Shown here in pieces: positions 16,169 through 46,869 of a DNA stretch of 64,000 nt; position 1 is the first letter of the stretch; each line of letters begins with the position of its first letter. Below the pieces are notes generated by a model. It ran no database searches. It was not told the origin of the DNA and was given only the letters and a program-made list of their open reading frames with translations. A program made the translations under genes and the position numbers. This stretch comes from a virus. Lineage: Duplodnaviria; Caudoviricetes. The DNA is taken from the IMG/VR virus record IMGVR_UViG_3300028048_000052, positions 96,001 through 160,000 of that record, one strand, 5' to 3'.

Positions 16169-17299
16169 ATGTATAACCGTGAAGAAGCATTAAAAAGAAT
16201 AGAATATCTTATAGAACAATTAAATTATCATACGAAGTTATACGACGAAGGTAAGCCCATAATCTCTGACACAGAATGGGACTCTATGTATTTTGAATTA
16301 CAAGAATTAGAAATGTTATTCAATATACACTTGCCAAATTCACCAACAAGTAAGGTTATTTTTGAAGTAAAGAATGAATTAAAGAAAGTTCATCACAATC
16401 ATGATATGTTATCTCTTGGTAAAACAAAAGATATGAAAGAAGTCCATGATTTTCTTGGTTCAAAAGATTTTATAACAATGTTAAAAATGGACGGTCTAAC
16501 TTGCTCTCTTTATTATAAAGATGGCGTTTTAGTTTCCGCAGAAACTCGTGGTGATGGCTATATTGGTGAAGATGTTTTACATAATGTTTTAACCATTGAT
16601 AATGTGCCAAAGAGAATTAGTTATAAAGATGAATTAATTATTGATGGTGAGATTATTTGCACTTATCAAGATTTTGAAGAGTTTAAAGATGAATATCAAA
16701 ACCCGAGAAACTTCGCCGCCGGATCGATTAGATTACTTGATAGTAAAGAGTGCGCCAAAAGAAAATTGACATTTGTTGCTTGGGACGTTATTAAGGGTTT
16801 TGATAATCTTAAATATCTAAATCAAAAGTTTCAAGAAATTGGTAAACTTAATTTTACAGTTGTACCTTGGTTAATGGGCGATGACTGGGATGCAAAAGAA
16901 TTTTTAGTTAATCAAGCAAAAAAATTAGGCTATCCAATAGATGGTTTAGTTTTTAAATTTGATGATATTGAATATGGTAACTCACTGGGGCAAACTGATC
17001 ATCATAAAAGAAATGCCATTGCTTTTAAATTTGAAGATGAGGTTTATGAAACAAAATTAAAAACAATTGAATGGACTATTGGGCGTACTGGTGTCTTAAC
17101 CCCGGTTGCTGTTTTTGATCCAGTAGAAATAGACTTTACAAGAGTTGAAAAGGCAAGTTTACATAATGTAAGTGTTTTGCGAGATATTCTTGGAGAACAT
17201 CCATGGGTTGGACAAAAAATAAAAATTAGTAAACGTAATATGATTATTCCACAAATAGAATGGGCTGAAAAAGAAAATAATGGGGACAATTTGATATAA
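16169..17299 (+). CDS. ligA: NAD-dependent DNA ligase, N-terminal half (adenylation and OB domains)
   Basis: KMDG, TRGDGYIGEDV, NPRNFAAGS, GRTGVLTPVA, ends after IIPQI. Confidence 0.9.
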   Translation: MYNREEALKRIEYLIEQLNYHTKLYDEGKPIISDTEWDSMYFELQELEMLFNIHLPNSPTSKVIFEVKNELKKVHHNHDMLSLGKTKDMKEVHDFLGSKDFITMLKMDGLTCSLYYKDGVLVSAETRGDGYIGEDVLHNVLTIDNVPKRISYKDELIIDGEIICTYQDFEEFKDEYQNPRNFAAGSIRLLDSKECAKRKLTFVAWDVIKGFDNLKYLNQKFQEIGKLNFTVVPWLMGDDWDAKEFLVNQAKKLGYPIDGLVFKFDDIEYGNSLGQTDHHKRNAIAFKFEDEVYETKLKTIEWTIGRTGVLTPVAVFDPVEIDFTRVEKASLHNVSVLRDILGEHPWVGQKIKISKRNMIIPQIEWAEKENNGDNLI

Positions 17300-17341
17300 T
17301 CAAATTATTCCGTTTTTCTTTATAAATAGGAGGAATAAAAA

Positions 17342-17944
17342 ATGTTTACAATTTATTTACATAAAAATAAAATTAATAATAAAGTTTATATTGGACAAAC
17401 ATCGCAACCACCAATAGATAGATGAAAAAATGGTAAAGGTTATACGCAATGCTATCATTTTAATAATGCAATACAAAAATATGGGTGAGATAATTTTGAG
17501 CATATTATTTTAGAGCAAGGAGATTGAACGCAAGAAGAGGCGAATTATAAAGAACAATATTATATTAATTTATATGATAGTACAAATATAAATAAAGGTT
17601 ATAATATTACTAATGGTGGAAGTAATAATATTTCACCAAATGCTTTGCCAAATGCAATAAATTGAATGCGAGCACATCCTGATTTTGGATTAGCGAGGGC
17701 CAATGATATGTTAAAATGACAAAAAGAACATCCAGATGACGTTAAAAAGCAAAGAGAAAGAGCACAAAAAAAAATGGCAGAAGCAAGAAAAAGAAAAGTA
17801 TTATGTGTAGAAACTGGTGTTATTTATGAAAGTGCGTCAGAAGCAGCAAGACAAAACAAAGGAACAACACAAAGTAAAATTTGTATGGTGTGCAGAGGAC
17901 AAAGAAAAACGGCGGGAAGATTACATTGGAAATATGCTGAATAA
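17342..17944 (+). mobile_element. Free-standing GIY-YIG homing endonuclease (5 TGA=Trp)
   Basis: TIY..NKINNKVYIGQT, AIQKYG*DNFEH, GYN; NUMOD1-like C-terminus; AGGAGG RBS. Confidence 0.85.
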
Positions 17945-18224
17945 TATAAAACAAAAAATTTTAAAATATAAATATAAAAAAGCAAAAAATATTTATATTA
18001 TAGGTTGTTGGGCTCATTGGGGGATACTAACCGCTAAATATAGCGGTCAAATGGATAAAGATGGTAATCCATTAACAATTCATTTTACAGACCATAATGG
18101 GTTAAAAGAAGAATATTATATTGCTCCGTGGTATACAGAAACGACTGGGATTGTTATAGGATATTCTTTTAATGAAAAACAAGCAAAGAGTATTGTAGAA
18201 AGGATAATAAATAATAAATGGTAG
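17934..18224 (+). CDS. Hypothetical protein between the ligase halves
   Basis: ATG overlaps the HEG stop; the upstream part of track ORF 17817 is a shadow of the HEG. Confidence 0.55.
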   Translation: MLNNIKQKILKYKYKKAKNIYIIGCWAHWGILTAKYSGQMDKDGNPLTIHFTDHNGLKEEYYIAPWYTETTGIVIGYSFNEKQAKSIVERIINNKW

Positions 18225-19066
18225 AAAAAAAATATATAGAGCTTCCAGAGTTTTGTCCTTATTGCGGTCATGAAATAGATTATATAACTTCACCTGATGG
18301 AGTAATAATAGCAAAATGTTCTAATGATAATTGTATTGGTAAAAAAGTTTATAAAATTGATCATTTTTGTAGTAAAAAAGGCTTAGATATTAAACACATT
18401 TCTGAAAATATAATTGAAGATTTTATTGATGAAGGGTACCTTAATACTTTTAGTGATATTTTTACACTAAAAGAGCATAGAAAACAATTAATTAATATTG
18501 AGGGGTATGGCGCCAGAAGTATAGATAGAATATTGTCTATGATTGAAGAAGCTAAAAATACAACTCTTGACAAGTTTATATCTGCGCTTGGCATTGATTT
18601 AATTGGGTCTAGTGTTTCAAAAGATTTGTGTAAAATATTTAAAACATATGATGATTTTAAATCTGCGTGCGTTAATGGATATAAGTTTGAAGAGTTAGAA
18701 AATTTTGGCGAAGCTAAGGCAAATAGTTTAAGAAGTTATAATTTTGATGAGGCTGATAAGGTTTATATGTATCTCAATGTTTCTAATCCGTTGTTTGAAA
18801 CCAATGAGGAAAAACCGTTAAATGGTATTACCGTTGTTATAACAGGCTCACTTGGCATTTTTAAAAACAGAGACGCAATGAAAGAAATGATTGAAAAATA
18901 TGGCGGAAAAGTAGCCGGTTCGGTTAGTAAGAATACCACCGTGCTTGTTAATAATGATATTAATTCCACTACTGGTAAGAATAAACGGGCAAAAGAATTG
19001 AATATCCCAGTTATGAGTGAACCAGACTTTATAGCGAAATATCTTGACCCTTATTTAGAAAAATAG
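18218..19066 (+). CDS. ligA: NAD-dependent DNA ligase, C-terminal half (Zn finger, HhH, BRCT)
   Basis: CPYCG...CSNDNC, ALGIDLIG, VVITGSL..R, GSVSKNT. Confidence 0.9.
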   Translation: MVEKKYIELPEFCPYCGHEIDYITSPDGVIIAKCSNDNCIGKKVYKIDHFCSKKGLDIKHISENIIEDFIDEGYLNTFSDIFTLKEHRKQLINIEGYGARSIDRILSMIEEAKNTTLDKFISALGIDLIGSSVSKDLCKIFKTYDDFKSACVNGYKFEELENFGEAKANSLRSYNFDEADKVYMYLNVSNPLFETNEEKPLNGITVVITGSLGIFKNRDAMKEMIEKYGGKVAGSVSKNTTVLVNNDINSTTGKNKRAKELNIPVMSEPDFIAKYLDPYLEK

Positions 19067-19078
19067 TATAATAATAAT

Positions 19079-19282
19079 ATGAATAAAGAAAGAAAAAAAC
19101 AAATAATCAACTTTTGCATTCAAATGGCAAGAGACGAACTTGATGAAAAATTATCCGATACTGAAAAAATGGATAAAATGAATTCGACATTAAATGCTTT
19201 GCGTCCAAATCCGGTTGAATTTGCAATGATGACAGACCTCGTTGATGAGTTTGTAGATAAAATAAAAAAAGGAGAGATTTAA
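19079..19282 (+). CDS. Hypothetical protein
   Basis: ATG lies just after TTGACC-N17-TATAAT; possibly near-leaderless. Confidence 0.55.
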   Translation: MNKERKKQIINFCIQMARDELDEKLSDTEKMDKMNSTLNALRPNPVEFAMMTDLVDEFVDKIKKGEI

Positions 19283-19537
19283 ATGAAAGATAATACAAAG
19301 AAAGTTTTAATGTATTTAAAAAAAGCAAATGGTAAAAATTTAACATCCGCAGACGTTGCAAAGGCCATTGGTTTAACAAAGAAACAGGTAGATGGTATCT
19401 TTACAATGGCAATCCAAAAGAAAGATTTAGGAGTAAGAACCCCGGCGCAAGTTCAGGATAAAGATGGTAAATATGTAAATGTAAATTACTTATCATTAAC
19501 TGATGCTGGAATGGCTCTTAATTTAGACGCTGAATAA
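19283..19537 (+). CDS. Winged-HTH DNA-binding protein
   Basis: LTSADVAKAIGLTKKQVDG...LTDAG. Confidence 0.7.
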   Translation: MKDNTKKVLMYLKKANGKNLTSADVAKAIGLTKKQVDGIFTMAIQKKDLGVRTPAQVQDKDGKYVNVNYLSLTDAGMALNLDAE

Positions 19538-19538
19538 T

Positions 19539-20480
19539 ATATATATTAGTTGTGGCGTTGCGTTTGTTATAGGAATTTTATTTGCTTATTTAATTTTAAA
19601 ATCCAAATTAGATCATGTAGTTAAAATTAATGAAGATAATATAAAAAGAAATAAACAAATACAAAATGAGGTCATTTATTGAGAAAAGAAAAAAGAAGAA
19701 CTAAATAGCGAATATATAGATTTAAAATCATCTGCTTCATCTCTTGATGCTGAAATAAAAATAAAATCAGAAACGGCTCAAAATATTATTAATTCAAAAA
19801 TTGAATTAATGAAAGAACAAATGGATAGAAAAGCAGAAGATTTAGCAAATCAATATCAATCTGCTATTGATGATGCAAATTCTCAATATTTAGAAATATT
19901 AGCAGATTTATCCAAAACATCAATCGATACAACGGAATCAATTATTGAATTAGAAAAAAAATTAAAGGAATTAAAATCAAAGCATGATGCAGTAGTTGAA
20001 GATTATAAACGAGCGCAAGAGATGAATAATAAAAAAGATTTCTATCGTTTACAATTAACAGATATTGATTTAAAAGAAATAAAAAAATTGCGTGAGGTTG
20101 AGCCATATTTACGTGATGCGCGTCCACTTAATAAAGTCATTTGAAGTGTTTATTATGAGCACCCATATACTGATTTAACTGGGCGTATTATGGGAAGAGA
20201 AAAAAGAACGGGTATTTATAAACTAACAAATCTTACTAATAATATGGTTTATATAGGACAAGCTGTTAATATTGCAGAAAGATGAAAACAACATATTAAG
20301 TGCGCTATTGGGGCCGATAGTGCGCCTAATAATAAATTGTATCCGGTAATGCGGGCAATTGGCCCAGAAAATTTTACTTTTGAGATTATGGAAGAATGTT
20401 TGCCAGAAGAGTTAAATGAAAGAGAACAATATTGGCAAGATTTCTATAAGGCGAAAGAGTTTGGTTATAGTGTAAGATAG
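19539..20480 (+). CDS. TM plus coiled-coil plus C-terminal GIY-YIG protein (3 TGA=Trp; start uncertain)
   Basis: Frame open from 19527 to TAG 20478; N-terminal hydrophobic helix; TGIYKLTN..MVYIGQAVNIAER*KQH. Confidence 0.75.
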
Positions 20481-20488
20481 GAGAAAAT

Positions 20489-20779
20489 ATGTATAGAGTT
20501 ATCGCCGGCAATGATACCGGAAAAACTAAAAAATTACTAACTGAATGTGGAAGCAATGGTGTATTTGTTTGCGCTCATCCAGAGCGTATTAGTGAAAAAT
20601 GTAGAGCATACAATATTCCATTAGTGAAAGCGATTGGATATGATGATTTTAAATATTTACTTATCGAAGGTGATTTGTATAATGAAAATGATGATAGACC
20701 GATTTATATTGATGAGTTAGAAAAATTTGTAAATTATTGTGTTCCATATTTAGCTGGCTATACATTAACAAACGATTAA
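20489..20779 (+). CDS. Hypothetical protein with P-loop-like motifs
   Basis: AGNDTGKT and IYIDE. Confidence 0.55.
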   Translation: MYRVIAGNDTGKTKKLLTECGSNGVFVCAHPERISEKCRAYNIPLVKAIGYDDFKYLLIEGDLYNENDDRPIYIDELEKFVNYCVPYLAGYTLTND

Positions 20780-20780
20780 T

Positions 20781-22575
20781 ATGAAATTAGAAAATGTAAG
20801 AGTATATAATATTTCAACAGCGTTATTTGGAATGAGAAATCCAAAAAATTCTTGGGATAGAAGAGATACCAAGAGTGGAATTGCAACTTATGATGAAGTT
20901 GTTAAAATGGCTGAAGATAGCGAATTTGATTTAAAAGATATCCTTTTGTATCAAGATGATAATGAAATGTGCGAATATTGTGTTATCGGCCCTAACGATA
21001 TGAAGCTAGCAAAAGTATTAAAAGATGCTGGCACAGAACACCGTAAATATTTAAGACAAATCTTTGTTACAATGGATATTACTGCACCGTTATATTGGTA
21101 GACTTTCTGCCAAAAAATACTTTACCGCTTCATCAGCGGGGTCGCATTAGCGGCTAACGGGGAAGCCTAAACTGAAAAGCATGGTAATCCCGTGGGAAAT
21201 ATAAAAAATAATAAATTAAATGTGTCAAAATATATTAATTCTTATTATATGTTTCTTATATATAATAGGAGGATTAAATAATGAAACAAACAAGAAATTG
21301 TGGTCCACGAAAAGATTTAAGTGGAAAAAAATTTGGTAAATTAACTGCAATATATTATGTTCCAAAAGGAAAATGACATTGCAAATGTGATTGTGGAAAT
21401 GAATTAGATGTGGACACAAGAAATTTAAATAGTAATCATACACAAAGCTGTGGCTGCTTACAAAAAGAAAATGTAAGAAAAAATGCTATTGATATGACCG
21501 GGTATGAAAATAATGGTATTAAAGTTATATCAAAAGCCGAATCTGATAAAAATGGTTACGCTCATTGAAATTGTGAATGTAAAATATGTGGAAGAAAATT
21601 TACTTCTGCTGGTTCAGCTATTAGACAAGGTCTTGTTCAAAGTTGTGGATGCGTTCATTCATTAAACGAGCAATTAATAACAAAAATGTTATTAGAAAAT
21701 AATATAGATTTTGCTAGAGAATATACTTTTGGAGATTTAAAAGGAGTTAATGGTGGGGCATTAAGATTTGATTTTGCGATATTTAAAGATAAAAAATTAT
21801 CTCATTTAATTGAATTTAATGGAAAACAACATTACGAAAAATCAAAAGGTAGTTGAGAAAAAGAATTTGACACATTACAAAAAAATGATAAAATAAAAAA
21901 AGAATATTGTGAAAAAAATAATATTAAATTAATTATCATAAAATATGACCAACAATATTCTTTAAAAGATTTATTATAATTATAAACCTGTAGAGACTAT
22001 CCCGGGTGAGACTGGGAGTACGGCTTCTATTGATACGAAGTTGGAAATGGTATTCTCTTTAAATAAAGAGTAAAAGATAGTCCAATCTATTATGAAAATA
22101 ATAGATAATTGGGAAAGAATTTGATACCTATAAAATCGGTACAACATCCAATAGCCAAAGTACGATGCATAAGATGGCGGCTAAACCAATTACATTAGAT
22201 TGCTTTGAGATTGGTGATTATGAAAAAGATTTAGTTTTTGAAGAAAGCACAGCAGGTGAGCATTCTTGGGATTATCAGTGTAAAGTGGACCACGTTATAG
22301 GTGGAGAAAGCGAAGGCACTTATTATTGGGATAAATGCTACATTAAATTCTTGGAAATGTTGCGTTTAAAATATCTTGAAACAAAAGATATGCGCTACTG
22401 GAAAGAGTTAATTAGATGGCTTCCAGAAAGCTGGTTACAGACAAGAACAATTACTTTAGATTATGAAGTATTGAGTAGAATGTACCAACAGAGAAAAGAC
22501 CATAAATTAAGTGAGTGGCATTGGTTCTGTGACCGGATTGCTGATATGCCATATGCAAAAGACTTGATTTTATAA
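20781..22575 (+). CDS. ThyX-like (flavin-dependent thymidylate synthase-like) protein; exons 20781-21099 and 22112-22575
   Basis: Splicing restores EHRKYLRQI..TAPLYW|WKEFDTYKIGT..NSQSTMHK...LP...RKDHKLSEW. Confidence 0.75.
21100..22111 (+). ncRNA. Group I intron in the thyX-like gene
   Basis: Exon ends in U; P1 TTGGT|AG pairs with CTGCCAA (U.G); core GTAGAGACTA...AAGATAGTCC; terminal G; frame restored. Confidence 0.9.
21281..21979 (+). mobile_element. Intron-encoded endonuclease (Cys-rich repeats plus Vsr/EDxHD-like domain; 3 TGA=Trp)
   Basis: KFGKLT..K*HCKCDCG..SCGC repeats; LRFDFAI..IEFNGKQHY..D. Confidence 0.8.
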
Positions 22576-28837: not shown

Positions 28838-29578
28838 GTGCCAAAATTAATTGATTTGACCGGGAAAAAATTTGGAAAACTTATTGTAAAAGAAAGAGCA
28901 CCAAATAAAAATAACCAAGTATGTTGATTATGTAAATGTGATTGCGGGAATGAAGTAATTGTCACAAGAAGAGAATTATTAACTGGACATACTAAATCGT
29001 GTGGGTGTTATCGTAAAGAGATTACCGCAAAAAGAAATAAAGAAATAAAACCTAAAAAATTAGATGGGTTAAGATTTGGCAAATTAACTGTTTTAAAGCC
29101 AACTGAATTACGAGATACAAATGGCGCAATAATTTGAGAGTGTGTTTGTGATTGTGGAACACATACAATGGTTCGTGGAAATTTATTAGTTAATGGAATG
29201 ATACAGAGTTGTGGATGTGTAAAATCACAAGGAGAACAAAAAATTATTGACATTTTAAAAAAATATGATATAATTTATGAAAAAGAAAAAACTTTTGAAA
29301 CATGCCGTTATCCAGAAACAAATTTCTTATGTCGTTTTGATTTTTATGTTAATAATAAATATTTAATAGAATTTGATGGTGAACAACATTTTAAAAAAAG
29401 TAAATATAATAATAGTTGAAATACAGAACAACATTTAAAAGAAACTAAAATGCATGATGAATATAAAAATAATTGGTGTAAAGAAAATAATATCCCATTA
29501 ATTAGAATTCCTTACAACCATTTAAATGAATTAAAAATAGAAGATTTAATGTTAGAAACAAGTAAATTTGTTATTTAA
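28838..29578 (+). mobile_element. Free-standing endonuclease, paralog of the thyX-intron ORF (3 TGA=Trp)
   Basis: GTG start after GGAGG; DLTGKKFGKL..C*LCKCDCG..SCGC twice; RFDFY..IEFDGEQH. Confidence 0.8.
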
Positions 29579-31940: not shown

Positions 31941-33112
31941 ATGGAACTTACAGTAAAACAACAGGAAGCTCTTACGCTTGCTGTTTCTCGCTATGTCAAT
32001 GGAGAAGCATACACATGTATTAGCGGGTATGCTGGAGTTGGTTAGGTAAAACAACATTGATTAGTTTCATTATTTCCGCTCTTGGATTACAACCATGGGA
32101 AGTTTGCTATATTGCCTATACCGGTAAGGCAGCGCTGGTATTAAAAAGCAAGGGATGCGAAAATGCCATGACAGCACATAGATTGTTATATATTTCTCAT
32201 CCAAAAGCAGATGGAACTTTCTTTCATATGCCACGAAGACCTTTACCACCTTATAAAATAATTGTATGTGATGAGATATCAATGTTACCAAAAGATATGT
32301 GGGAGCTTCTTTTATCTCATCATATTCATGTTATTGCGCTTGGAGATCCGGCCCAATTACCTCCTATCACAGAAGATAATGGGGTATTGGCAAATCCGCA
32401 TATATTTTTGGATGAAATCGTACGTCAAGCCCAAGATAATGAAATCATTAAATTGAGCATGGATATTCGTGAAGGAAAACCTTTACAATTATTCAATGGT
32501 AACCAAGTTAAAGTAATTGATAAAAAAGATTTAAAATCGGGAATGTATACTTGGGCTGATCAAATTATTTGTGCTAAAAATGAAACACGACGCCAAATAA
32601 ATGAGTATATGCGTGAAATGACATTGGGTATGAAAACACCCGACCCAGTGGAAGGTGATAAAGTCATCTGTTTAAAAAACGATTGGGATAGTATGAACGC
32701 TTATGGAGATATGTTAGTTAATGGCACCATTGGAACTATTTCTTATATTCGATATGATGATAATAATAAATATTTAAAACCCCATGTTGAATGGGATTTA
32801 TTACCAGATGGTTATATCCCATCTGAGTGTGCTGAAGATCCATATTTTAGAGATTTGAATATTGACTATAAATTATTAACAACTGGTGAACCAACAGTTA
32901 CACAAAAAAATTTTAGAAAATTTCCTCAAATTTGGAAACCAAAAGAATTTGATTATGGTTATTGTATTACCTGTTGGAAAGCGCAGGGTGATCAGTATAA
33001 TAAAGTATTATTATTTGAAGAGGGATTCCCTTTTGAGCCAGAAGAGCATAGAAGATATCTCTATACTGGTATTACAAGAGCAGTTGAAAAATTGGTAGTC
33101 GTAAGGAAATAA
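31941..33112 (+). CDS. RecD/Dda-like SF1B helicase interrupted by a 5-nt insertion in Walker A
   Basis: MELTVKQQEA..ISGYAGVG[TAGGT]KTTLI; DEISM, GDPAQLPP, RQ, KAQG, YTGITRA downstream. Confidence 0.85.
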
Positions 33113-33187: not shown

Positions 33188-34552
33188 ATGAAAAATGAAT
33201 ATGGTTATCTTCCAAATGAGACGCCATCGTTAGGTAAATTACTTTTATATGCTTTACAGCAGGTAATTGTAATGTTTCCAGCGACAGTTACCGTAGCATT
33301 GATTACTGGTTTCCAAGTATCAACAACGATATTCGCGTCAGGTTTGGCGACTTTGTGTTTTATTTTAATTACACAAAAGAAAATTCCTTTGTACTACGGC
33401 TCAAGTTTTGCTTATTTATCTGCTGTTAGCGCAATGGTTATGGCAGAAGGAACTGCTGATCAAATTGCAAGTTGGCAGGCAACAGGAATTTTACCGACTG
33501 AATTAATTTCAAAAGCACAATTTGGAATTATTATGTCTGGATTTGTATCAATTGCGGCTGGATTGCTTGTAAAGAAATTTGGTAAAGACTCTGTTGAAAA
33601 AGTTCTCCCGGCTTCAATTACTGGTCCAGTATCTATGGTCATTGGTCTTACGTTAGCTGGAAACGCTTTAAGTGATGCTATTTCAGCTGGTAATACCGCA
33701 TGGTGCATTGTCGCATTAATTACTTTAATTTCTACTATGATTTATTCAAGATATTTAAAAGGATTATTGGGACAATTACCATTATTATTGGGTGCAGTTA
33801 CTGGTTGTATTGTAGCTGGATTATTCGCATTATTTGGAATTAATTTATTTAGAAGTATTCCAACAGAAGCACTTAATTCACTTTGGTCTTTTGGCCCATT
33901 TGCAATTCCAGCTTTCAGTTTACCGAAATATAGTTGGGCGGCTTTAATTGGAATTATGCCAATTGCTATTGCCACTATTCCAGAGTCAACTGCGCATGTT
34001 TATCAGTTAGATCTTTATGTGCAAGATATTGCAAAAAAGAAAGGTGTTGAAGCTGATAGAATTGAAAATCTATTAGATAAAAATTTAATTGGAGATGGTT
34101 TGTGCGACATGATTTCTGGACTTATCGGTGGTCCAGCTGGAACAAATTATGGCGAAAATATTTCCACAATGGCGATTACGAGAGTATTTAGTATTCCTGT
34201 GTTAATTGCCGCTAGTATTATTGCAATGATAATTTCTTGTTTTACGCCTTTAATTCAAGGAATTTATGCTATTCCGTTAGCTGTAATTGGTGGTTTAGAG
34301 ATTTATCTCTTTGGAGCAATCGCAGCGCAAGGTATGGCAATTATGATAGATAAAAAAGTAGATATGTTTGATAGTAAAAATATTGCTGTTATTGCCACAA
34401 TTGTTATTGTTGGTATTGGTGGACAATATGCATTTGGTGGAAATATTCCATTGTTTGGAATGAATATTCCTTGCGTTGCTGGGGCAGCGATTGCTGGTAT
34501 TCTAATTAATGCTTTATTATCGATAAAGAAAAAAGGAGTAATGAATGAATAA
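33188..34552 (+). CDS. NCS2 uracil/xanthine permease (UraA/PyrP-like)
   Basis: YYGSSFAY, ESTAH, GDG, TNYGEN signature; multiple TM segments. Confidence 0.9.
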   Translation: MKNEYGYLPNETPSLGKLLLYALQQVIVMFPATVTVALITGFQVSTTIFASGLATLCFILITQKKIPLYYGSSFAYLSAVSAMVMAEGTADQIASWQATGILPTELISKAQFGIIMSGFVSIAAGLLVKKFGKDSVEKVLPASITGPVSMVIGLTLAGNALSDAISAGNTAWCIVALITLISTMIYSRYLKGLLGQLPLLLGAVTGCIVAGLFALFGINLFRSIPTEALNSLWSFGPFAIPAFSLPKYSWAALIGIMPIAIATIPESTAHVYQLDLYVQDIAKKKGVEADRIENLLDKNLIGDGLCDMISGLIGGPAGTNYGENISTMAITRVFSIPVLIAASIIAMIISCFTPLIQGIYAIPLAVIGGLEIYLFGAIAAQGMAIMIDKKVDMFDSKNIAVIATIVIVGIGGQYAFGGNIPLFGMNIPCVAGAAIAGILINALLSIKKKGVMNE

Positions 34553-35909
34553 TCTTTTAGAGAAATGGTTTCATTTGAAAGAGAATGGCACTACATTAAC
34601 AACCGAGTTAATTGCTGGTCTCACTACTTTTGCGGCAATGGCATATATTATTGTCGTAAATCCTGCTACATTGGCTGGGTTTGGAGAACCCGGAGCGATG
34701 TTTATTGCTACAATCTTTGCATCTGCGCTTAGTACGGCTCTGCTTGGTTTAATCGCTAATATCCCATACGCCGCGGCGCCGGGACTTGGGTTAAACAACA
34801 CCGCCGCCAACATCCTTGCTGGCTATACAGCTTACCTCGTAGGACTTAGCCCAGAAGGCATTATCGCAGTTGTCTTGCTCTCTGGTTTAATTAATGTATT
34901 AATTACAGTTACAAATATTCGTAAGCATATTATTAAAGCAATTCCAGAGTCATTACAGAATGCAATTAGTGCGGGTATTGGTATGTTTATTATCTATATC
35001 GCATTATGCAATGTTGGTTTGGTTCATTTCACTTTCGGTATTCCTGCTATTAGCACGACAATTGATTTTAAAGTATTATTAGTATTCATTGTTGGCTTAT
35101 GTTTAACGGTTTATCTCTTATTAAAAAATGTCAATGGCGCAATCTTAATCGGTATTGTTGTTGCTACTCTCTTAGGTATTCCTCTTGGAGTAACTAATTT
35201 CAGCACTGGTTATAGTATTGGTGAAGCATTTACTGCTTATGGCCATTGGTTTGGAACTCCTATTACAAAGGGTCTGCCAGAATTATTTAGTGATTTAAGA
35301 AATATCATTCCTATCTTGATTGGTATTTTATCCTTCTCGTTGTCTGATATTTTTGATACAATTGGTACATTCATTGGTACTGGTAAAGTTAGTGGTATCT
35401 TTAATGACGCTGATTTAGAAGATATGGAAAGCGGTTCTGGTTTTGATTCAAAAATGGATAAAGCATTATTCGCAGATGCAATTGCTACTCCTATTGGTGC
35501 TTTACTCGGCACATCTTCAACTACTACTTATGTTGAATCTGCGGCTGGTATCGGCGCTGGCGGTCGTACAGGATTAACCTCTATCGTTGTAGCATTATGC
35601 TTCTTATTATCATTACCATTCGCTGGTTTCGTTAGTGGTATCCCATCAGCGGCAACAGCTCCTGCATTAATCGTAGTTGGTGTTATGATGATGGCATCAT
35701 TAAGAGAGATTAATTGGAATGATTTAGAAGAAGCAATCCCTGCAATGTGTGCAAGCGTGCCTATGGCATTAACCTATGGTATTACAAATGGTATTATGTT
35801 AGGTTTCTGGGCATACACGTTTGTAAAACTTTGTAAAGGAAAGATAAAAGAAGTCCATCCAATCATTTTGGTAAGTGATATCTTGTTTATCTTAAACTAC
35901 CTAATGTAA
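34545..35909 (+). CDS. NCS2 AzgA/PbuG-like guanine/hypoxanthine permease
   Basis: TELIAGLTTF.AMAYII.VNP, APGLGLN, DIFDTIGT, TTYVESAAG..GGRTGL. Confidence 0.92.
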   Translation: MNNLLEKWFHLKENGTTLTTELIAGLTTFAAMAYIIVVNPATLAGFGEPGAMFIATIFASALSTALLGLIANIPYAAAPGLGLNNTAANILAGYTAYLVGLSPEGIIAVVLLSGLINVLITVTNIRKHIIKAIPESLQNAISAGIGMFIIYIALCNVGLVHFTFGIPAISTTIDFKVLLVFIVGLCLTVYLLLKNVNGAILIGIVVATLLGIPLGVTNFSTGYSIGEAFTAYGHWFGTPITKGLPELFSDLRNIIPILIGILSFSLSDIFDTIGTFIGTGKVSGIFNDADLEDMESGSGFDSKMDKALFADAIATPIGALLGTSSTTTYVESAAGIGAGGRTGLTSIVVALCFLLSLPFAGFVSGIPSAATAPALIVVGVMMMASLREINWNDLEEAIPAMCASVPMALTYGITNGIMLGFWAYTFVKLCKGKIKEVHPIILVSDILFILNYLM

Positions 35910-35913
35910 AAAG

Positions 35914-35970
35914 AATGGGTGGGGCTTAGGGCTCCACCCATTGATTTTTTTTATAAAATATGATATAATA
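35914..35970 (+). terminator. Terminator overlapping the dnaE sigmaA-like promoter
   Basis: AATGGGTGGGGC-ttagg-GCTCCACCCATT hairpin, then TTGATT-N17-TATAAT. Confidence 0.65.
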
Positions 35971-36010
35971 TAAATGTAAAAATAGGAAGAAAGTGAGGTG
36001 ATATAGAATA

Positions 36011-39000
36011 ATGAGAACATATTTTGGAGCACATAACCATACTCATTATTCCTAGGTAAGTCCAATTTGCGACTAATTGATTGTATCAATAAACCAAAGG
36101 ATTTAATTAATAAAGCAATAGAGTTGGGGTTATCTGGTATCGCTATAACTGATCATGAAAGTTTATCCGCAGGGATGGAAGTTAATCAATATGCAAAAAA
36201 GATTCACGAAAAAAATCCTAATTTTGTTATTGCATTAGGTAATGAAATTTATTTAACAGATGATAGAAGTAGTGGGCAGAAATATTATCATTTTATTATA
36301 ACAGCAAAAAATAAAAGAGGTTATAGAGCATTAAAAGAATTAAGTTCAATCGCTTGGTATAATATGTATAGTGATAGAGGTATGGAAAGAGTTCCAACTT
36401 TAAAAAGCGAATTGAAAGAGGTAATGAAAAATTATAAAGGTGATGTAATAGCACAAACTGCTTGTATTGGTGGTGAATTATCTCAATTAATTCTTGAAAT
36501 GGAACATGCGAGAGAAATTAATGATAAAGAGAATGCGAATACATCTTATTTAAAGATTAGAGAATTTATTGATTTTTGTATTGATGTATTCGGCAAAGAT
36601 GATTTTTTTATTGAGTGTGCGCCAGCGAATAATCCCGACCAGATTAAAGTAAACAAGAAATTAATTCAAATAGCGAAAGTTTATGGATTAAGAATGATAT
36701 TTGCGACAGACGCACATTATTTAAGACCAGAAGATAGAAGTGTTCATAAAGCATTTTTAAATTCAAAAGATGGCGAAAGAGAAGTTGATGAATTTTATCA
36801 ATATTCATATTTAATGAATAGTGATGAAGTTGAGGAATTATTAAGTTATAGTTTTGAAAAGAAAGATATAGATTGGTTATTTGAAAATACTTTATATTTA
36901 CAAAATAAGATAGAAAATTATAGTTTAGAAAAACATCAAGATATTCCAGAAGTAAAAGTTAAAGATTATCCAAAAGTAAACAAGAAAGAAGAATATGCGG
37001 TTTTATCAAGTTTATATAACTCTGATAATATTCAAGAAAGATATTGGATTAATCAATGTGAAGAAGCATTAATTCAAAAAGGTTTAGATAAAGATAAAAG
37101 GTATTGGGATAGATTAGAAGAAGAAGCAACAACAAAAAGAATTGTTGGTGAGAAACTTCAAACTTGTATGTTTAGTTATCCAAATACTTTACAACACTAT
37201 ATTGATTTGTTTTGGCGTTGTGGTTCAACGGTTGGCGCAGGAAGAGGTTCTGCGTGTAGTGGATTAAATCATTATCTGTTGGGTATAACTCAGTTGGATC
37301 CGATTAAATGGAATTTGCCGTTTTGGAGATATTTGAATCCAGAACGAGTTGAATTAGGTGATATTGATTTGGATTTGGCGCCAAGTAGATTACAAACAAT
37401 ATTTGAAGAAATTAGAAAAGAAAGGGGAGAACTTGGTTTAGTTCAAGTTTGTACTTTTGGAACAGAAGGTACAAAATCAGCAATTCAAACAGCTTGTAGA
37501 GGTTATAGAAGTGTTGATTATCCCGATGGTATAGATGTAGATGAAGCACAATATTTATCATCGTTAATTCCAGTAGAAAGAGGATTTCAGTGGAGTATTA
37601 ATGATGTTATAAATGGAGATGCGGAAAAAGGCAGAGTGCCTGTAACTCAATTTATAAATGAGATTGAACAGTATCCGGGATTATTAGATATTGTCAAAGG
37701 CATTGAAGGATTAGTAAGTAGAAGAGGAAGTCATGCGTCGGGTGTAATTTTATTTGATGAAAATATTTATGATGATGCAGCGATTATGAGGACTCCATCT
37801 GGGGCGATTGTAACTCAGTGGGATTTACATATGCAAGAAGCCGCAGGTTCAGTTAAATATGATTTCTTATTAACATCAGTTCAAGATATTATTATTGAAA
37901 CGATTAATCTTTTACAGAAAGATGGTAAGATTGAAAAAGATTTAACTTTAAGAGAAATATATAATAAGTATTTACATCCAGAAGTATTACCGCAAGATGA
38001 TAATAAAATGTGGGATGCATTAGCAAATGGAACTGTTATAAATTGTTTCCAATTTGATAGTGCAGTTGGTTCTCAGGCAGCGAAAAAGATTAGACCTCAT
38101 ACGCCAATGGAAATGGCGGATGCTAATGGTTTAATGAGATTAATGGCAGCCGAGAAAGGCGCAGAAACTCCATTAGATAAATATGTAAGATTTAAAAATA
38201 ATATTAATTTATGGTATCAAGAGATGAAGAAATGGGGATTAACCGAAGAAGAAATGAAAACGGTTGAACCATATTTTAAATCATCTTATGGGGTACCACC
38301 ATCACAAGAACAATTGATGATGATGTTAATGGATAAAAATATTTGCGGATTTGATTTAAAAGAAGCAAACGCGGCGAGAAAAATCGTTGGTAAAAAACAG
38401 ATGGATAAGATTCCAGAGCTTCATCAAAAAGTATTAGACCAAGCCAAGAGTAAAGCGTTAGGTAAATATATTTGGGCACAAGGTGTTGGCCCGCAGATGG
38501 GTTATTCATTTAGTATTATTCATGCATTAGCATATTCATTTGTTGGTATGCAAACTTTATATTTAGCGACTCATTTTAATCCAATTTATTGGAATACGGC
38601 GTGTTTGATTGTTGACAGTGGGTCGTTAGAAGAAAGTAGTGATAGCACAAATTATAGAAAGATAGCGATAGCGATTGGTAAAATGAGAAAAGCTGGTATT
38701 AATATTAGTTTAGTTGATATTAATAAGTCAGGTTTTGGATTTGAACCAGATGCAGAAAATAATAGAGTGTTATTTGGATTAAAAGCGGTAATGGGTGTTG
38801 GCGATGAAGTCACGAATAAAATTATTGAGAATAGACCTTATAGTTCAGTAAATGATTTTATTGAAAAAGTTAATCCAAATAGGACAGCGATGGTTGCATT
38901 AATAAAAGGTGGAGCGTTTGATGTATTAGAGCCAGATAGAATCAAATGTATGAAAGATTATATTTGGGAAACTTGTGATAAGAAAAAGAGATTAACGATG

Positions 39001-39870
39001 CAGAATTTAGCGGCGTTAATGAAATATAATTTGTTCCCAAAGAATAAATATAAACAAGAAAAAAGAGTTTATGAATTTACAAGATATTTAAAAGCAATGT
39101 GTAAGTTAGATAAAGAAACTTACAAACTTGATGACAGATGTATTAAATTCTTAACTGAAATTGAAAGTGATGATTTAATAGAACAGAATGATAAGAATGA
39201 GTTTATATTAAAAGCGAAAGATTGGGATAAGGTTTATCAATTTAATATAGATAGTTTTAGAGATTATATTAATAGCCATAAAGATGAATTATTAGATAAG
39301 TTAAATAATATTATCTTCAATGAAGATATGGAAAAATATGCGAAAGGAAATATTTCATCTTGGGAAATGGAAACATTATGTTTCTATTATCACGATCATG
39401 AATTAATAAATGTTAATAATGATAAATATGGTTTAGTTGATTTCTTTGATTTAGATACAGAACCAGAAGTGGAAAGAACTTATACAACAAAAACTGGGCA
39501 TAAAGGAAATATATTTAAGTTATCAAAGATTGCGGGAACCTGTATCGCGAAAGATAAAATAAGGTCAACTGTATCATTATTAACGGTTAATGGTGTTGTT
39601 GATGTTAAATTTAGAAAAGAATATTTTAGTTTATTTGACAAACAAATATCTGAAAGAATGCCAGATGGGACGAAACATGTGGTTGAAAAATCTTGGTTTA
39701 ATAGAGGCCAGATGATTATAGTTCAAGGATTTAGAAGTGAAGATAATTTTATTCCAAGAAAATATGGAAATCAAGGTCATCAGTTATACAGAATAACAAA
39801 TATTGATAAAGATAATAATTTAATGATTCAAACAGAAAGATATAATGGCGGTTTTGATGAAGAAAATTAA
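36011..39870 (+). CDS. dnaE: DNA polymerase III alpha (DnaE-type) interrupted by an 11-nt insertion after codon 14
   Basis: MRTYFGAHNHTHYS[TAGGTAAGTCC]NLRLIDCI; AITDHE, GRGS, DIDLD, HASGV, KYDFL, YSFSIIHA. Confidence 0.93.
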
Positions 39871-39952: not shown

Positions 39953-42900
39953 ATGATGAAATATGTGATTAAACGAGATGGGCGAAGAAAGGATTTCAAT
40001 GAGGCAAAAATTGAAGCGGCTATTTTAAAAGCATTTATTGCGGTTGACGGTGAAGCAACAGATTACGCAAAAGAGAAAGCAAAAAATATAGCTGATTATA
40101 TTAATAATTTAGAACAAGAAGAATTAACAGTTGAGGAAATCCAAGATTTAGTAGAAAAAGGATTAATGAGCTGTAAAAGAAAAGATGTTGCAAAAGCCTA
40201 TATTCTTTATAGAGAAGAAAGAAGCAAAGAAAGACAAAGAAAAACAAGATTAATGGGCGTTATTAAAGAAAAATTAGATGCCTCTAATGTTGTTAATCAA
40301 AATGCTAATGTAGATGAGCACTCTTTCGGCGGAAGAAAAGGTGAAGCAACAAACGAACTGATGAAGCAGTACGCCCTTGATTATTGCGTATCTGAATTAT
40401 CAAGAAATAATCATTTAAATAATGAAATCTATATTCATGATTTAGATAGTTATGCTGTTGGTATGCATAATTGTCTTACAATCCCATTTGATAAATTATT
40501 AGCAGAAGGATTTAATACAAGACAAACTGATGTGCGCCCTGCTAGCAGCGTAAATACTGCGTTTCAATTGGTAGCTGTAATTTTTCAATTACAATCATTA
40601 CAACAATTTGGCGGTGTTAGTGCTAGTCATTTAGATTGGACTATGGTTCCATATGTCAGAAAGAGTTTCTTTAAACATTGGCGAGATGGGCATAAATTTT
40701 TATTAAATGATAATGATGCAGATAACTTAATATTTTTTGCAGATAAGTCAATTGATGATGAATATTATAAAGATGGTGCTTATGAATATGCTATGGCTAT
40801 GACACAAAGAGAGTTAGACCAAGCTGTTGAAGGCATGTATCATAATCTTAATACCCTTCAATCAAGAAGTGGTAATCAATTACCTTTTACCTCAATTAAC
40901 TATGGTACTTGCACATTGCCAGAAGGAAGAATGGTTATTAAATCATTATTAGATAAATCTATTGAAGGCGTTGGCAAAGTTAGAAAAACTCCAATTTTCC
41001 CTTGTGGAATTTTCCAATGCATGAAAGGCGTTAATAGGAAACCGGGAGATCCTAACTACGATTTATTCCAGTTAGCCTTAAAATCAACTGCTAAGAGATT
41101 ATATCCAAATTATGCCAATATTGATTGGAGCAATAACGCTGGATATGATATAAATGATCCAAAAACTTATTTTAGCACGATGGGTAAGCGAAACTTAGCT
41201 CATCTAAAATCTTTTGAACCACGCTCGTGGGTGTTCGCTTAAAGCGAGCTAACGGTTAGGCCCCTCTGGGGTGAGACCGTGCTAAGATTTATCATAATAC
41301 TCATATTGGAGAAAATATGTGAGTATATAAAATTACAAATATTCAAAATAATAAAGTTTATATTGGTCAAACAATAAGACCAATAGAGCAAAGATTTAAT
41401 CGTCATATAAATGATGCATTAAACAATATATTAGATACTCATTTTGCAAGAGCGATTAGAAAATATGGCAAAAACAATTTCAAAATTGAAATTATTGACA
41501 TGGCTCAAACGCAAGATGAATTAAATAAAAAAGAACAATATTGAATTAAATATTATAATTCTACTATTGATGGTTATAATGAAACGGATGCTATTTCTAA
41601 ATGCGGTGGTAATACTTATAAAAGTAAAACTTTAAAAGAAATGGCAGATATAGAAGAAAAAATACGAAAAACAAAAATAGGAAAATTAAATCCTATGGCT
41701 CGTAAAATTAAAAGAATAGATGTTAATACCAATGAATTTGAAATTTATGATACGATAATTGCTTGTGCAAAAGCTTGTGGTATAAAAAATGGGAAAACAT
41801 CTATTTCGCAAAGATTAAATGGGAATATAAAAACACCCTATAAAGATAAATGAATATTTGAGTATTATGATAAATAAAGTGTACAGACTATCCCTGATGA
41901 ATGTAAGGGAGTAGGGGTGGAGATAAGCACCACTCCGAAGCGGAAGACTACTTAATAGTAGAAGATATAGTCGGTACCAATGGTAACATTGGAAAAATAC
42001 GTGCAGAACGGCAAATGGCGCTGATATTAATGCAGAACCGGGCACAAACCCACAAACAAAAGATGGTAGGGGAAATATATGCCCTGTTACCATTATTTTA
42101 CCAACATTAGCAATGGAAGCAAAAGAAATTTCCGGAGATACTGTTGATAATTTCTTTGATATTTTAGAAAGAAAACTTGTTGAAGCAAAAGATATGCTTA
42201 TCGAAAGGTATGAATATATCTGTTCTCAAAGTCCAGAAAGTGCAAAGTTTATGTATGAAAATGGTACAATGTTAGGATACCACCCAGAAGAAGGAATTCG
42301 AAGTGCATTAAAGCACGGTACTCTTGCTCTTGGTCAATTGGGCTTGGCTGAAACTTTACAAATTTTAATTGGTAAAGATCATACAACAAAAGAAGGCATG
42401 GATTTAGCAAAAGAAATTGAGGAATTGTTCCAAAAGAGATGTGCAGAATTTAAACAAAAATATCATTTAAATATTGGTGTTTATTATACTCCTGCTGAAA
42501 ACTTATGCTATACAGCAATGAAAAAGTTTAAAGCAAAATATGGGGAGATTCCAAATGTAAGTGATAGGGAATATTTTACAAATTCAATTCATGTTCCTGT
42601 TTGGGTAAAGATTGACCCATTTACTAAAATTGATATTGAAAGTCAATTAACTGGCTATTCAAATGCTGGTTGTATCACTTATGTTGAATTAGAAGGCACG
42701 GCTGGTAATAACCTTGACGCATTAGAACAGTTAGTTAATTATGCCATGGATAAAGATATCCCTTATTTCGCAATCAATGTTCCAAATGATACTTGTCTTG
42801 ACTGTGGTTATACCGGCGAATTTAATGATAAGTGTCCTGTTTGCGGAAGCACCCATATCCAACAGTTAAGAAGGGTTACAGGGTACTTAACTGGTAATTA

Positions 42901-42985
42901 TACAACGGCATTTAATCTTGGAAAACAAGCCGAGGTTCATGATAGAGTAAAACACTCAGAGCAACTCTCAGATTGGAGACGATAA
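39953..42985 (+). CDS. nrdD: Anaerobic ribonucleotide reductase; exons 39953-41185 and 42002-42985
   Basis: ATP cone; splicing restores FSTMG|CRT; TPAENLC; CxxC..CxxC; RRVTGYL glycyl-radical motif. Confidence 0.95.
41186..42001 (+). ncRNA. Group I intron in nrdD
   Basis: Exon ends GGT; GTACAGACTA...AAGATATAGTC core; terminal G at 42001; frame restored. Confidence 0.9.
41317..41877 (+). mobile_element. Intron-encoded GIY-YIG endonuclease (3 TGA, including codon 2)
   Basis: M*VYKITNIQNNKVYIGQT...AIRKYG..EQY*IKYY..GYN; NUMOD3-like tail. Confidence 0.85.
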
Positions 42986-46563: not shown

Positions 46564-46869
46564 TGGCAGGGGGCGAAGGACTCGAACCCTCATAGCCGAG
46601 GTTGGAGCTCGGTTCGCGGTTTTGCGTACCACTGCAATTTTCATTGCCCTTGCGGTTTGTGGTCTGGACTATATCTTCACCATATATCTCTACTTAGGTG
46701 GCTGATTATCTAGTCTCTACGGGCCAAATTACTCTGTTCCCTCGGTGTTACCAGTTAAGGATTCACCGATATCATCAGCTCCACTATTACTGTTTCCAGT
46801 AATAGGCTCCAATTGAGTAAAATTACTCTTTTTAAAGACCGATTCCGTTCCCAACGGTGAAAACCCCCT
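46564..46869 (-). tRNA. Atypical tRNA, anticodon UCA after splicing (putative Trp opal decoder); exons 46869-46835 and 46624-46564
   Basis: Acceptor AGGGGGT/GCCCCCT-G-CCA; T arm GAGGG-TTCGAGT-CCTTC; spliced anticodon arm CGGT-CTT|CAAA-ACCG; extra CCGAG-CTCCAAC-CTCGG arm. Confidence 0.85.
46625..46834 (-). ncRNA. 210-nt group I intron (IC3-like) inside the tRNA anticodon
   Basis: P1 CTT|T-AAAA-AGAG with U.G pair; CTATTACTG-GAAA-CAGTAATAG; GCTGAT/ATCAGC P3; GTAGAGACTA and AAGATATAGTCC core; terminal G. Confidence 0.9.

Follow-up and report, generated by a model that had tools for sequence, protein, structure and literature searches.

Very few cases of natural translational bypassing are known, these being T4 gene 60 and its homologs, phage Hau3, and the byps of yeast mitochondria. 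The T4 gene 60 bypass is associated with the MobA HNH element, and neither polymerase nor helicase is mentioned in the account of this system (Manning and Atkins, bioRxiv 10.1101/2022.08.31.505936). Another example is the terminase of the Streptomyces phage Hau3, for which a 10-nt bypass has partial experimental support (PMC10732093). Synthetic stop-hops in E. coli and the byps of Magnusiomyces mitochondria have been reviewed together, with no natural in-frame stop-hop known to that review of 2016, and with shorter counterparts of bypassing long presumed to exist (PMC5009743). Our own literature search, in which few subscription journals were covered, found no paper on bypass in dnaE or in a helicase gene. 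As to recoding by frameshift, prfB (RF2) carries a +1 frameshift at CUU-UGA-C.

The locus described here belongs to a phage (Caudoviricetes) and lies in a stretch of 64,000 nt, the window, to whose first letter the positions refer (Table 1). The gene for the DNA polymerase DnaE opens with 14 codons, ending in HNHTHYS, and then meets a stop; AAT TTG CGA follow the second of two TCC codons, and from there the frame is free of stops until TAA 39868-70. The ATG at 36011, the ribosome-binding site, the HxH motif and the order TCC-TAG-GTAAG-TCC are all as they were read in the initial annotation, and removal of the 11 nt does restore DnaE: the product of 14+1268 = 1282 aa possesses the PHP, Pol3-alpha, finger and HHH domains. 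The gap, which shifts the frame by +2, interrupts the first PHP metal motif, its HxH aligning with PHP metal ligands of Taq DnaE. This dnaE is the only copy in the 175-kb phage record and the only DNA polymerase gene. As to the promoter of its own attributed to dnaE earlier, a promoter-like site is present, but the match is by itself no better than chance expectation. The region between the helicase gene and dnaE (33188-35909) is occupied by two tandem NCS2 nucleobase permeases, as in the closest relative.

Table 1. Features of the helicase and dnaE loci (window positions)
Feature	Position	Strand	Remark
HNH-type endonuclease gene, 171 aa	31409..31924	+	weak Pfam HNH, E 4e-4
RecD/Dda-like helicase codons 1-34, take-off GGT 32040-42 in Walker A	31941..32042	+	
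5-nt coding gap: stop TAG 32043-45, landing GGT 32045-47	32043..32047	+	GGT-TA-GGT
helicase body, intact	32048..33112	+	
terminator-like hairpin	35914..35942	+	3' of upstream permease gene
promoter-like TTGATT-17-TATAAT ahead of dnaE	35941..35969	+	also in insert-free relative
foreign replacement patch, leader and codons 1-51; putative HNH cassette remnant	35974..36174	+	~73% identical to closest relative
extended ribosome-binding site GAGGTGAT of dnaE	35995..36002	+	
dnaE codons 1-14, PHP HxH metal-ligand motif; take-off TCC 36050-52	36011..36052	+	
11-nt coding gap: stop TAG 36053-55, GTAAG, landing TCC 36061-63	36053..36063	+	
intact dnaE body, 1268 codons and stop	36064..39870	+	dN/dS 0.057 vs closest relative

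With a probability of about 0.75, judged from sequence, we read this gap as a short translational bypass, a stop-hop, that arrived within a homing-endonuclease cassette. As in T4 gene 60/MobA, the take-off and landing codons match (TCC/TCC), the Ser codon being repeated in 14 of the 16 insert types detailed below, a stop (TAG) directly follows the take-off, and the site lies in a replacement patch, here of 201 bp, with an HNH gene adjacent in relatives, though not at this dnaE. There are also dissimilarities. MobA splits the topoisomerase large-subunit gene; the targets here are dnaE, affected at its start and left unsplit, and a RecD/Dda-like helicase, and in these cassettes the nuclease lies upstream of the gene. 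The gaps measure 5-11 nt, as opposed to 20-50 nt in T4 gene 60-type bypass (Manning and Atkins). The 11-nt allele has no stable take-off stem-loop (z +0.75), and its take-off is preceded by 14 codons only, versus 46 in T4 gene 60, too short for a peptide signal of the T4 type (25-30 residues before take-off). T4 gene 60 has a mini Shine-Dalgarno 6 nt before the landing; here an AGGT ends 3 nt upstream of the landing TCC, and it is not conserved across gap types. Since target gene, hairpin and peptide signal all fail to agree, the dnaE gap is not a member of the T4 gene 60/MobA group; it is a new short-range variant that would work like it without being homologous.

The other precedents are matched in part. 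Hau3 and dnaE would have in common that translation passes over a few inserted nucleotides within an essential phage gene, but Hau3 involves a hungry sense codon, UUA, and is proposed to be regulatory, whereas dnaE involves a stop codon and a link to homing endonucleases. Matched codons flanking a stop are also the design of the synthetic stop-hops and of byps, the latter tolerating two-of-three landing (PMC5009743). Byps depend on an unassigned codon and on mitochondrial ribosomes, unlike the dnaE gap. The CUU-UGA-C core of prfB breaks dnaE six codons later in sister cassettes; unlike prfB, the gap described here has 11 nt, a +2 frame change and UAG, a single extra base being found only in those sister alleles.

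A codon, a stop, a gap and the same codon again are frequent by chance, with 52 loose matches genome-wide, mostly of that nature; the dnaE gap is judged real because a conserved motif is interrupted and because the same codon is hit in many phages. A protein search for dnaE gave 50 assessable loci, of which 39 are intact, two have an insert of 7 nt at this Ser codon, and nine carry an extra base at CTT-TGA, six codons past the Ser site. Pattern searches extended the Ser-site series, bearing out the earlier suggestion to inspect this site in related phages, to 16 insert types of 5, 6, 7, 8, 9, 10 and 11 nt at one Ser codon, although most variants were found by patterns in which TCN had to be followed by a stop, and alleles that are related do not count as independent. 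The inserts occupy all three frames, and every one opens with an in-frame TAG or TAA; a stop directly after the take-off also characterizes every break found by the protein-based searches. The landing is an exact repeat of the codon in 10 types, a synonymous TCN in four and ACC in two, with the 5-nt class lacking a full codon match. When the search was repeated with no constraint on the landing, it returned 26 dnaE matches, 19 with TCN and seven, from one clade, with ACC. Some alleles (L080/L130 and L147) hop at a Thr codon instead (ACT-TA-ACT), and the last base of every take-off codon seen is a pyrimidine. The 11-nt gap is the longest in the series and is represented by one sequence type, its exact insert having no second match in IMG/VR. 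An ENA assembly (L267), possibly of the same sample, shows no difference over 13.8 kb, a span that contains the dnaE and the helicase insert.

The genomic surroundings point to how the gap was acquired, an aspect absent from the initial annotation. The closest relative (L001/L087) has no insert and differs only in the 201-bp patch, the flanks of which are 98-100% identical, with the dnaE body at 97.8%; the closest alleles to the patch itself are 77% identical, and the donor is not resolved by the tree. In one relative (L153), the GGAGGTGAT in the leader of a gap-bearing dnaE, at the place of the ribosome-binding site, encodes the end of an HNH gene. A search with this HNH protein alone yielded 12 full-length homologs, each encoded immediately 5' of dnaE, and the dnaE start is broken in 10 of the 12 (CTT-TGA-C in eight, an 8-nt Ser gap in two) and intact in two. 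A leader motif, GGTG[AC]T, is present in 17/25 gap alleles, including the one studied here, and in 0/31 intact ones, these alleles not being independent. Most gap alleles, this dnaE locus among them, have no adjacent nuclease. We infer that the dnaE gap came in a cassette whose nuclease was later lost, as described for MobA elements. The alleles with an extra base at CTT-TGA-C (L009, L014, L024-L026, L030-L032, L045, L268-L274, L279), linked to the same HNH family, have the prfB frameshift core and no obvious internal Shine-Dalgarno; their mis-called start recurs in at least five more 50%-identity clusters.

A second gap is found 4 kb upstream of dnaE, in the helicase gene, where skipping 5 nt restores the Walker A motif GYAGVGKTT. 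The HNH-type gene is directly upstream of this helicase and is missing from the closest relative, relative to which helicase codons 1-34 have been replaced. The helicase gaps of relatives are GCY-TAA-CY (landing ACY, 27 loci), GCC-TAG-TT and two 8-nt types; wherever an HNH gene was found linked to the helicase, the Walker A behind it is broken, and no intact helicase is accompanied by one. The helicase HNH is not alignable with the dnaE HNH of L153. For the genes covered by the fetched loci, the helicase gap is the only further one in this genome that homology confirms. The helicase of L085 has its Walker A broken in another manner, by an intein-like sequence (…THN before TTLVKF) and not by a short gap.

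Both sides of the gap appear to be maintained as protein. The relaxed selection on dnaE that had been considered earlier was not found, dN/dS being 0.057 here, and 0.06-0.2 between pairs of gap-bearing dnaE genes (dS 0.65-2). The seven codons ahead of the stop have a pS of 0.74 and a pN of 0.10 in gap-bearing genes, and such synonymous variation, along with the low dN/dS, suggests that, across the family, the stretches before and after the gap are both translated. Purifying selection thus appears established for the family of gap-bearing dnaE genes rather than for this allele by itself, the evidence being at the family level for the 11-nt allele because it is a single sequence type.

A hop from TCC 36050 to TCC 36061, as originally proposed, remains the best explanation, the repeated Ser codon, the occurrence of gaps in all frames and the in-frame stop being what re-pairing of a peptidyl-tRNA predicts; such re-pairing would account for the series as a whole. 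A ribosome would stall with UAG in its A site and peptidyl-tRNA-Ser paired to UCC; in some of the ribosomes this tRNA would detach, slide 11 nt and re-pair at the next UCC, translation would restart at AAU to give normal DnaE, and the remaining ribosomes would release a 14-aa peptide. Attack of the nuclease on the DNA may be prevented by the insert, as the gene 60 insert guards against MobA, and the helicase would follow the identical design, with its HNH retained. The Ser tRNA for the hop must be the host's, since the sole Ser tRNA of the phage reads AGY, and with no release factor gene and no UCN-reading tRNA encoded by the phage genome, host components would carry out the hop. As to structure, 8-bp hairpins are restricted to the 10-nt class, L063/L134 and L253; a conserved hairpin is not general across gap alleles (Wilcoxon P 0.60 downstream, 0.27 upstream), and hairpin z-scores of gap versus intact alleles give P 0.10. 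With no stable hairpin and a short leader, the 11-nt allele may hop inefficiently, and its bypass efficiency is probably low.

The strongest competitor, though an unlikely one, is a single-step frameshift or readthrough, in which a -1 slip at the stop would add LGKS here, and a +1 shift or readthrough in other alleles would add 2-4 residues to a surface loop. The -1 frame is indeed open through the gap, the CTT-TGA-C site of the same HNH family is best read as a +1 shift, and the 5-nt class falls short of a full codon match. The loop, which runs from HxH to the Asp ligand, is also already three residues longer in this family than in Taq DnaE and has one or two additional residues in 18 of 129 distant homologs. 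However, two extra residues are the maximum among these 129 intact homologs, and thus none has the +3 or +4 to set beside the four residues added by a -1 slip, nor is an in-frame insertion present in any of the approximately 45 intact close alleles. There is no slippery run, and, as the gaps fall in all three frames, one simple frameshift is excluded: three distinct mechanisms would be required at one site, with the Ser repeat left unexplained.

Removal of the 11 nt from the mRNA by a phage or host nuclease and a ligase, in the manner of a micro-intron, seems very improbable, even if a cut can be drawn after a U and with a terminal G, as in group I introns, and even if the genome does contain several intron-like elements. 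Eleven nucleotides are too short for a ribozyme core and have no Rfam match, for five of the 14 TCN-landing types no register allows a terminal G, and no structure is common to the alleles. Splicing would need neither a stop in frame at the first position nor wobble-compatible repeats; as far as sequence can tell, these are features of translation and not of splicing, and the imperfect repeats would be easier to reconcile with tRNA wobble or two-of-three pairing than with a precise excision.

Reinitiation at TTG 36067, one of the alternatives raised initially, would produce a DnaE devoid of its first strand, with the 14-aa peptide wasted or complementing in trans, and is slightly less credible still: AGGT does lie 9 nt ahead of the TTG, and gene callers do pick this start, but TTG follows the gap in 1/22 gap alleles, so that the explanation is not general, two PHP metal ligands would be missing from the product (and the Walker A lysine from that of the helicase), and the codons before the stop are conserved as protein. 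Least likely of all is a dead or mis-assembled allele (assembly error had been mentioned at the outset), for although the second assembly may be from the same sample and the low dN/dS may be older than the patch, the assemblies do not differ at a single base, 15 further natural types show a matching design, and the 1268-codon body has no other lesion.

In this phage TGA is read as Trp, with coding density rising from 0.68 to 0.84; in-frame TGA is frequent in genes presumed to be late, is present in nuclease genes and is not found in dnaE, a pattern matching that of Borges et al. (bioRxiv 10.1101/2021.08.26.457843). The dnaE and helicase gaps both use TAG, which is not recoded. Stop suppression was considered and rejected, dnaE being free of TGA and TAG=Q barely lifting coding density. 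The host is inferred to belong to Bacillota, two related contigs having been binned with Bacilli and the nearest cultured phages being 46% identical; among cultured relatives the best DnaE match is at 46%, and none spans the gap. A candidate decoder of TGA in the recoded phage is a tRNA with a UCA anticodon (46564-46869, minus strand), recognized only after removing 210 nt (46625-46834); this insert has a U before it and a terminal G, is group I-like and has no Rfam match, and in the spliced tRNA of 96 nt the variable arm is long and carries a second, anticodon-like CCA loop. A tmRNA is encoded at 64817-65162 of the phage record and could matter for ribosomes stalled at gaps. Elsewhere in the window, nrdD (39953-42985) is interrupted by an intron-like element bearing a GIY-YIG gene (41317-41877) that contains three in-frame TGA; a further three nuclease-like genes, of the GIY-YIG or another type, lie in 17281-21979 and have in-frame TGA, at least one of them in an intron-like context; and an endonuclease-like gene with three TGA (28838-29578), located between the primase and the DHH gene, is missing from the closest relative, the ends of its flanking genes being diverged, with no coding gap seen.

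A link between the gaps and the code switch is possible. That the gaps are now regulatory, with competition between release factor and hop setting the output of DnaE and helicase, is a doubtful proposition; if true, rewiring of termination during infection would tie replisome synthesis to the code switch, and the RF2-type CUU-UGA-C sister alleles would represent a UGA-sensing version.

If the bypass is confirmed, these phages would present a graded natural series of minimal stop-hops in essential replication genes, with gaps of 5-11 nt, hops at Ser, Thr, Ala and Gly codons and hairpins in some members only, and the minimal requirements for bypass would become testable with short reporters. This genome is well suited for such tests, having two gaps that are separated by 4 kb and are both missing from a close relative. 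It would also follow that the DnaE and helicase predicted by gene callers are too short in a considerable proportion of these phages (11/50 dnaE loci in the protein search). Finally, it would be suggested that free-standing homing endonucleases generally rely on tiny untranslated inserts for immunity.
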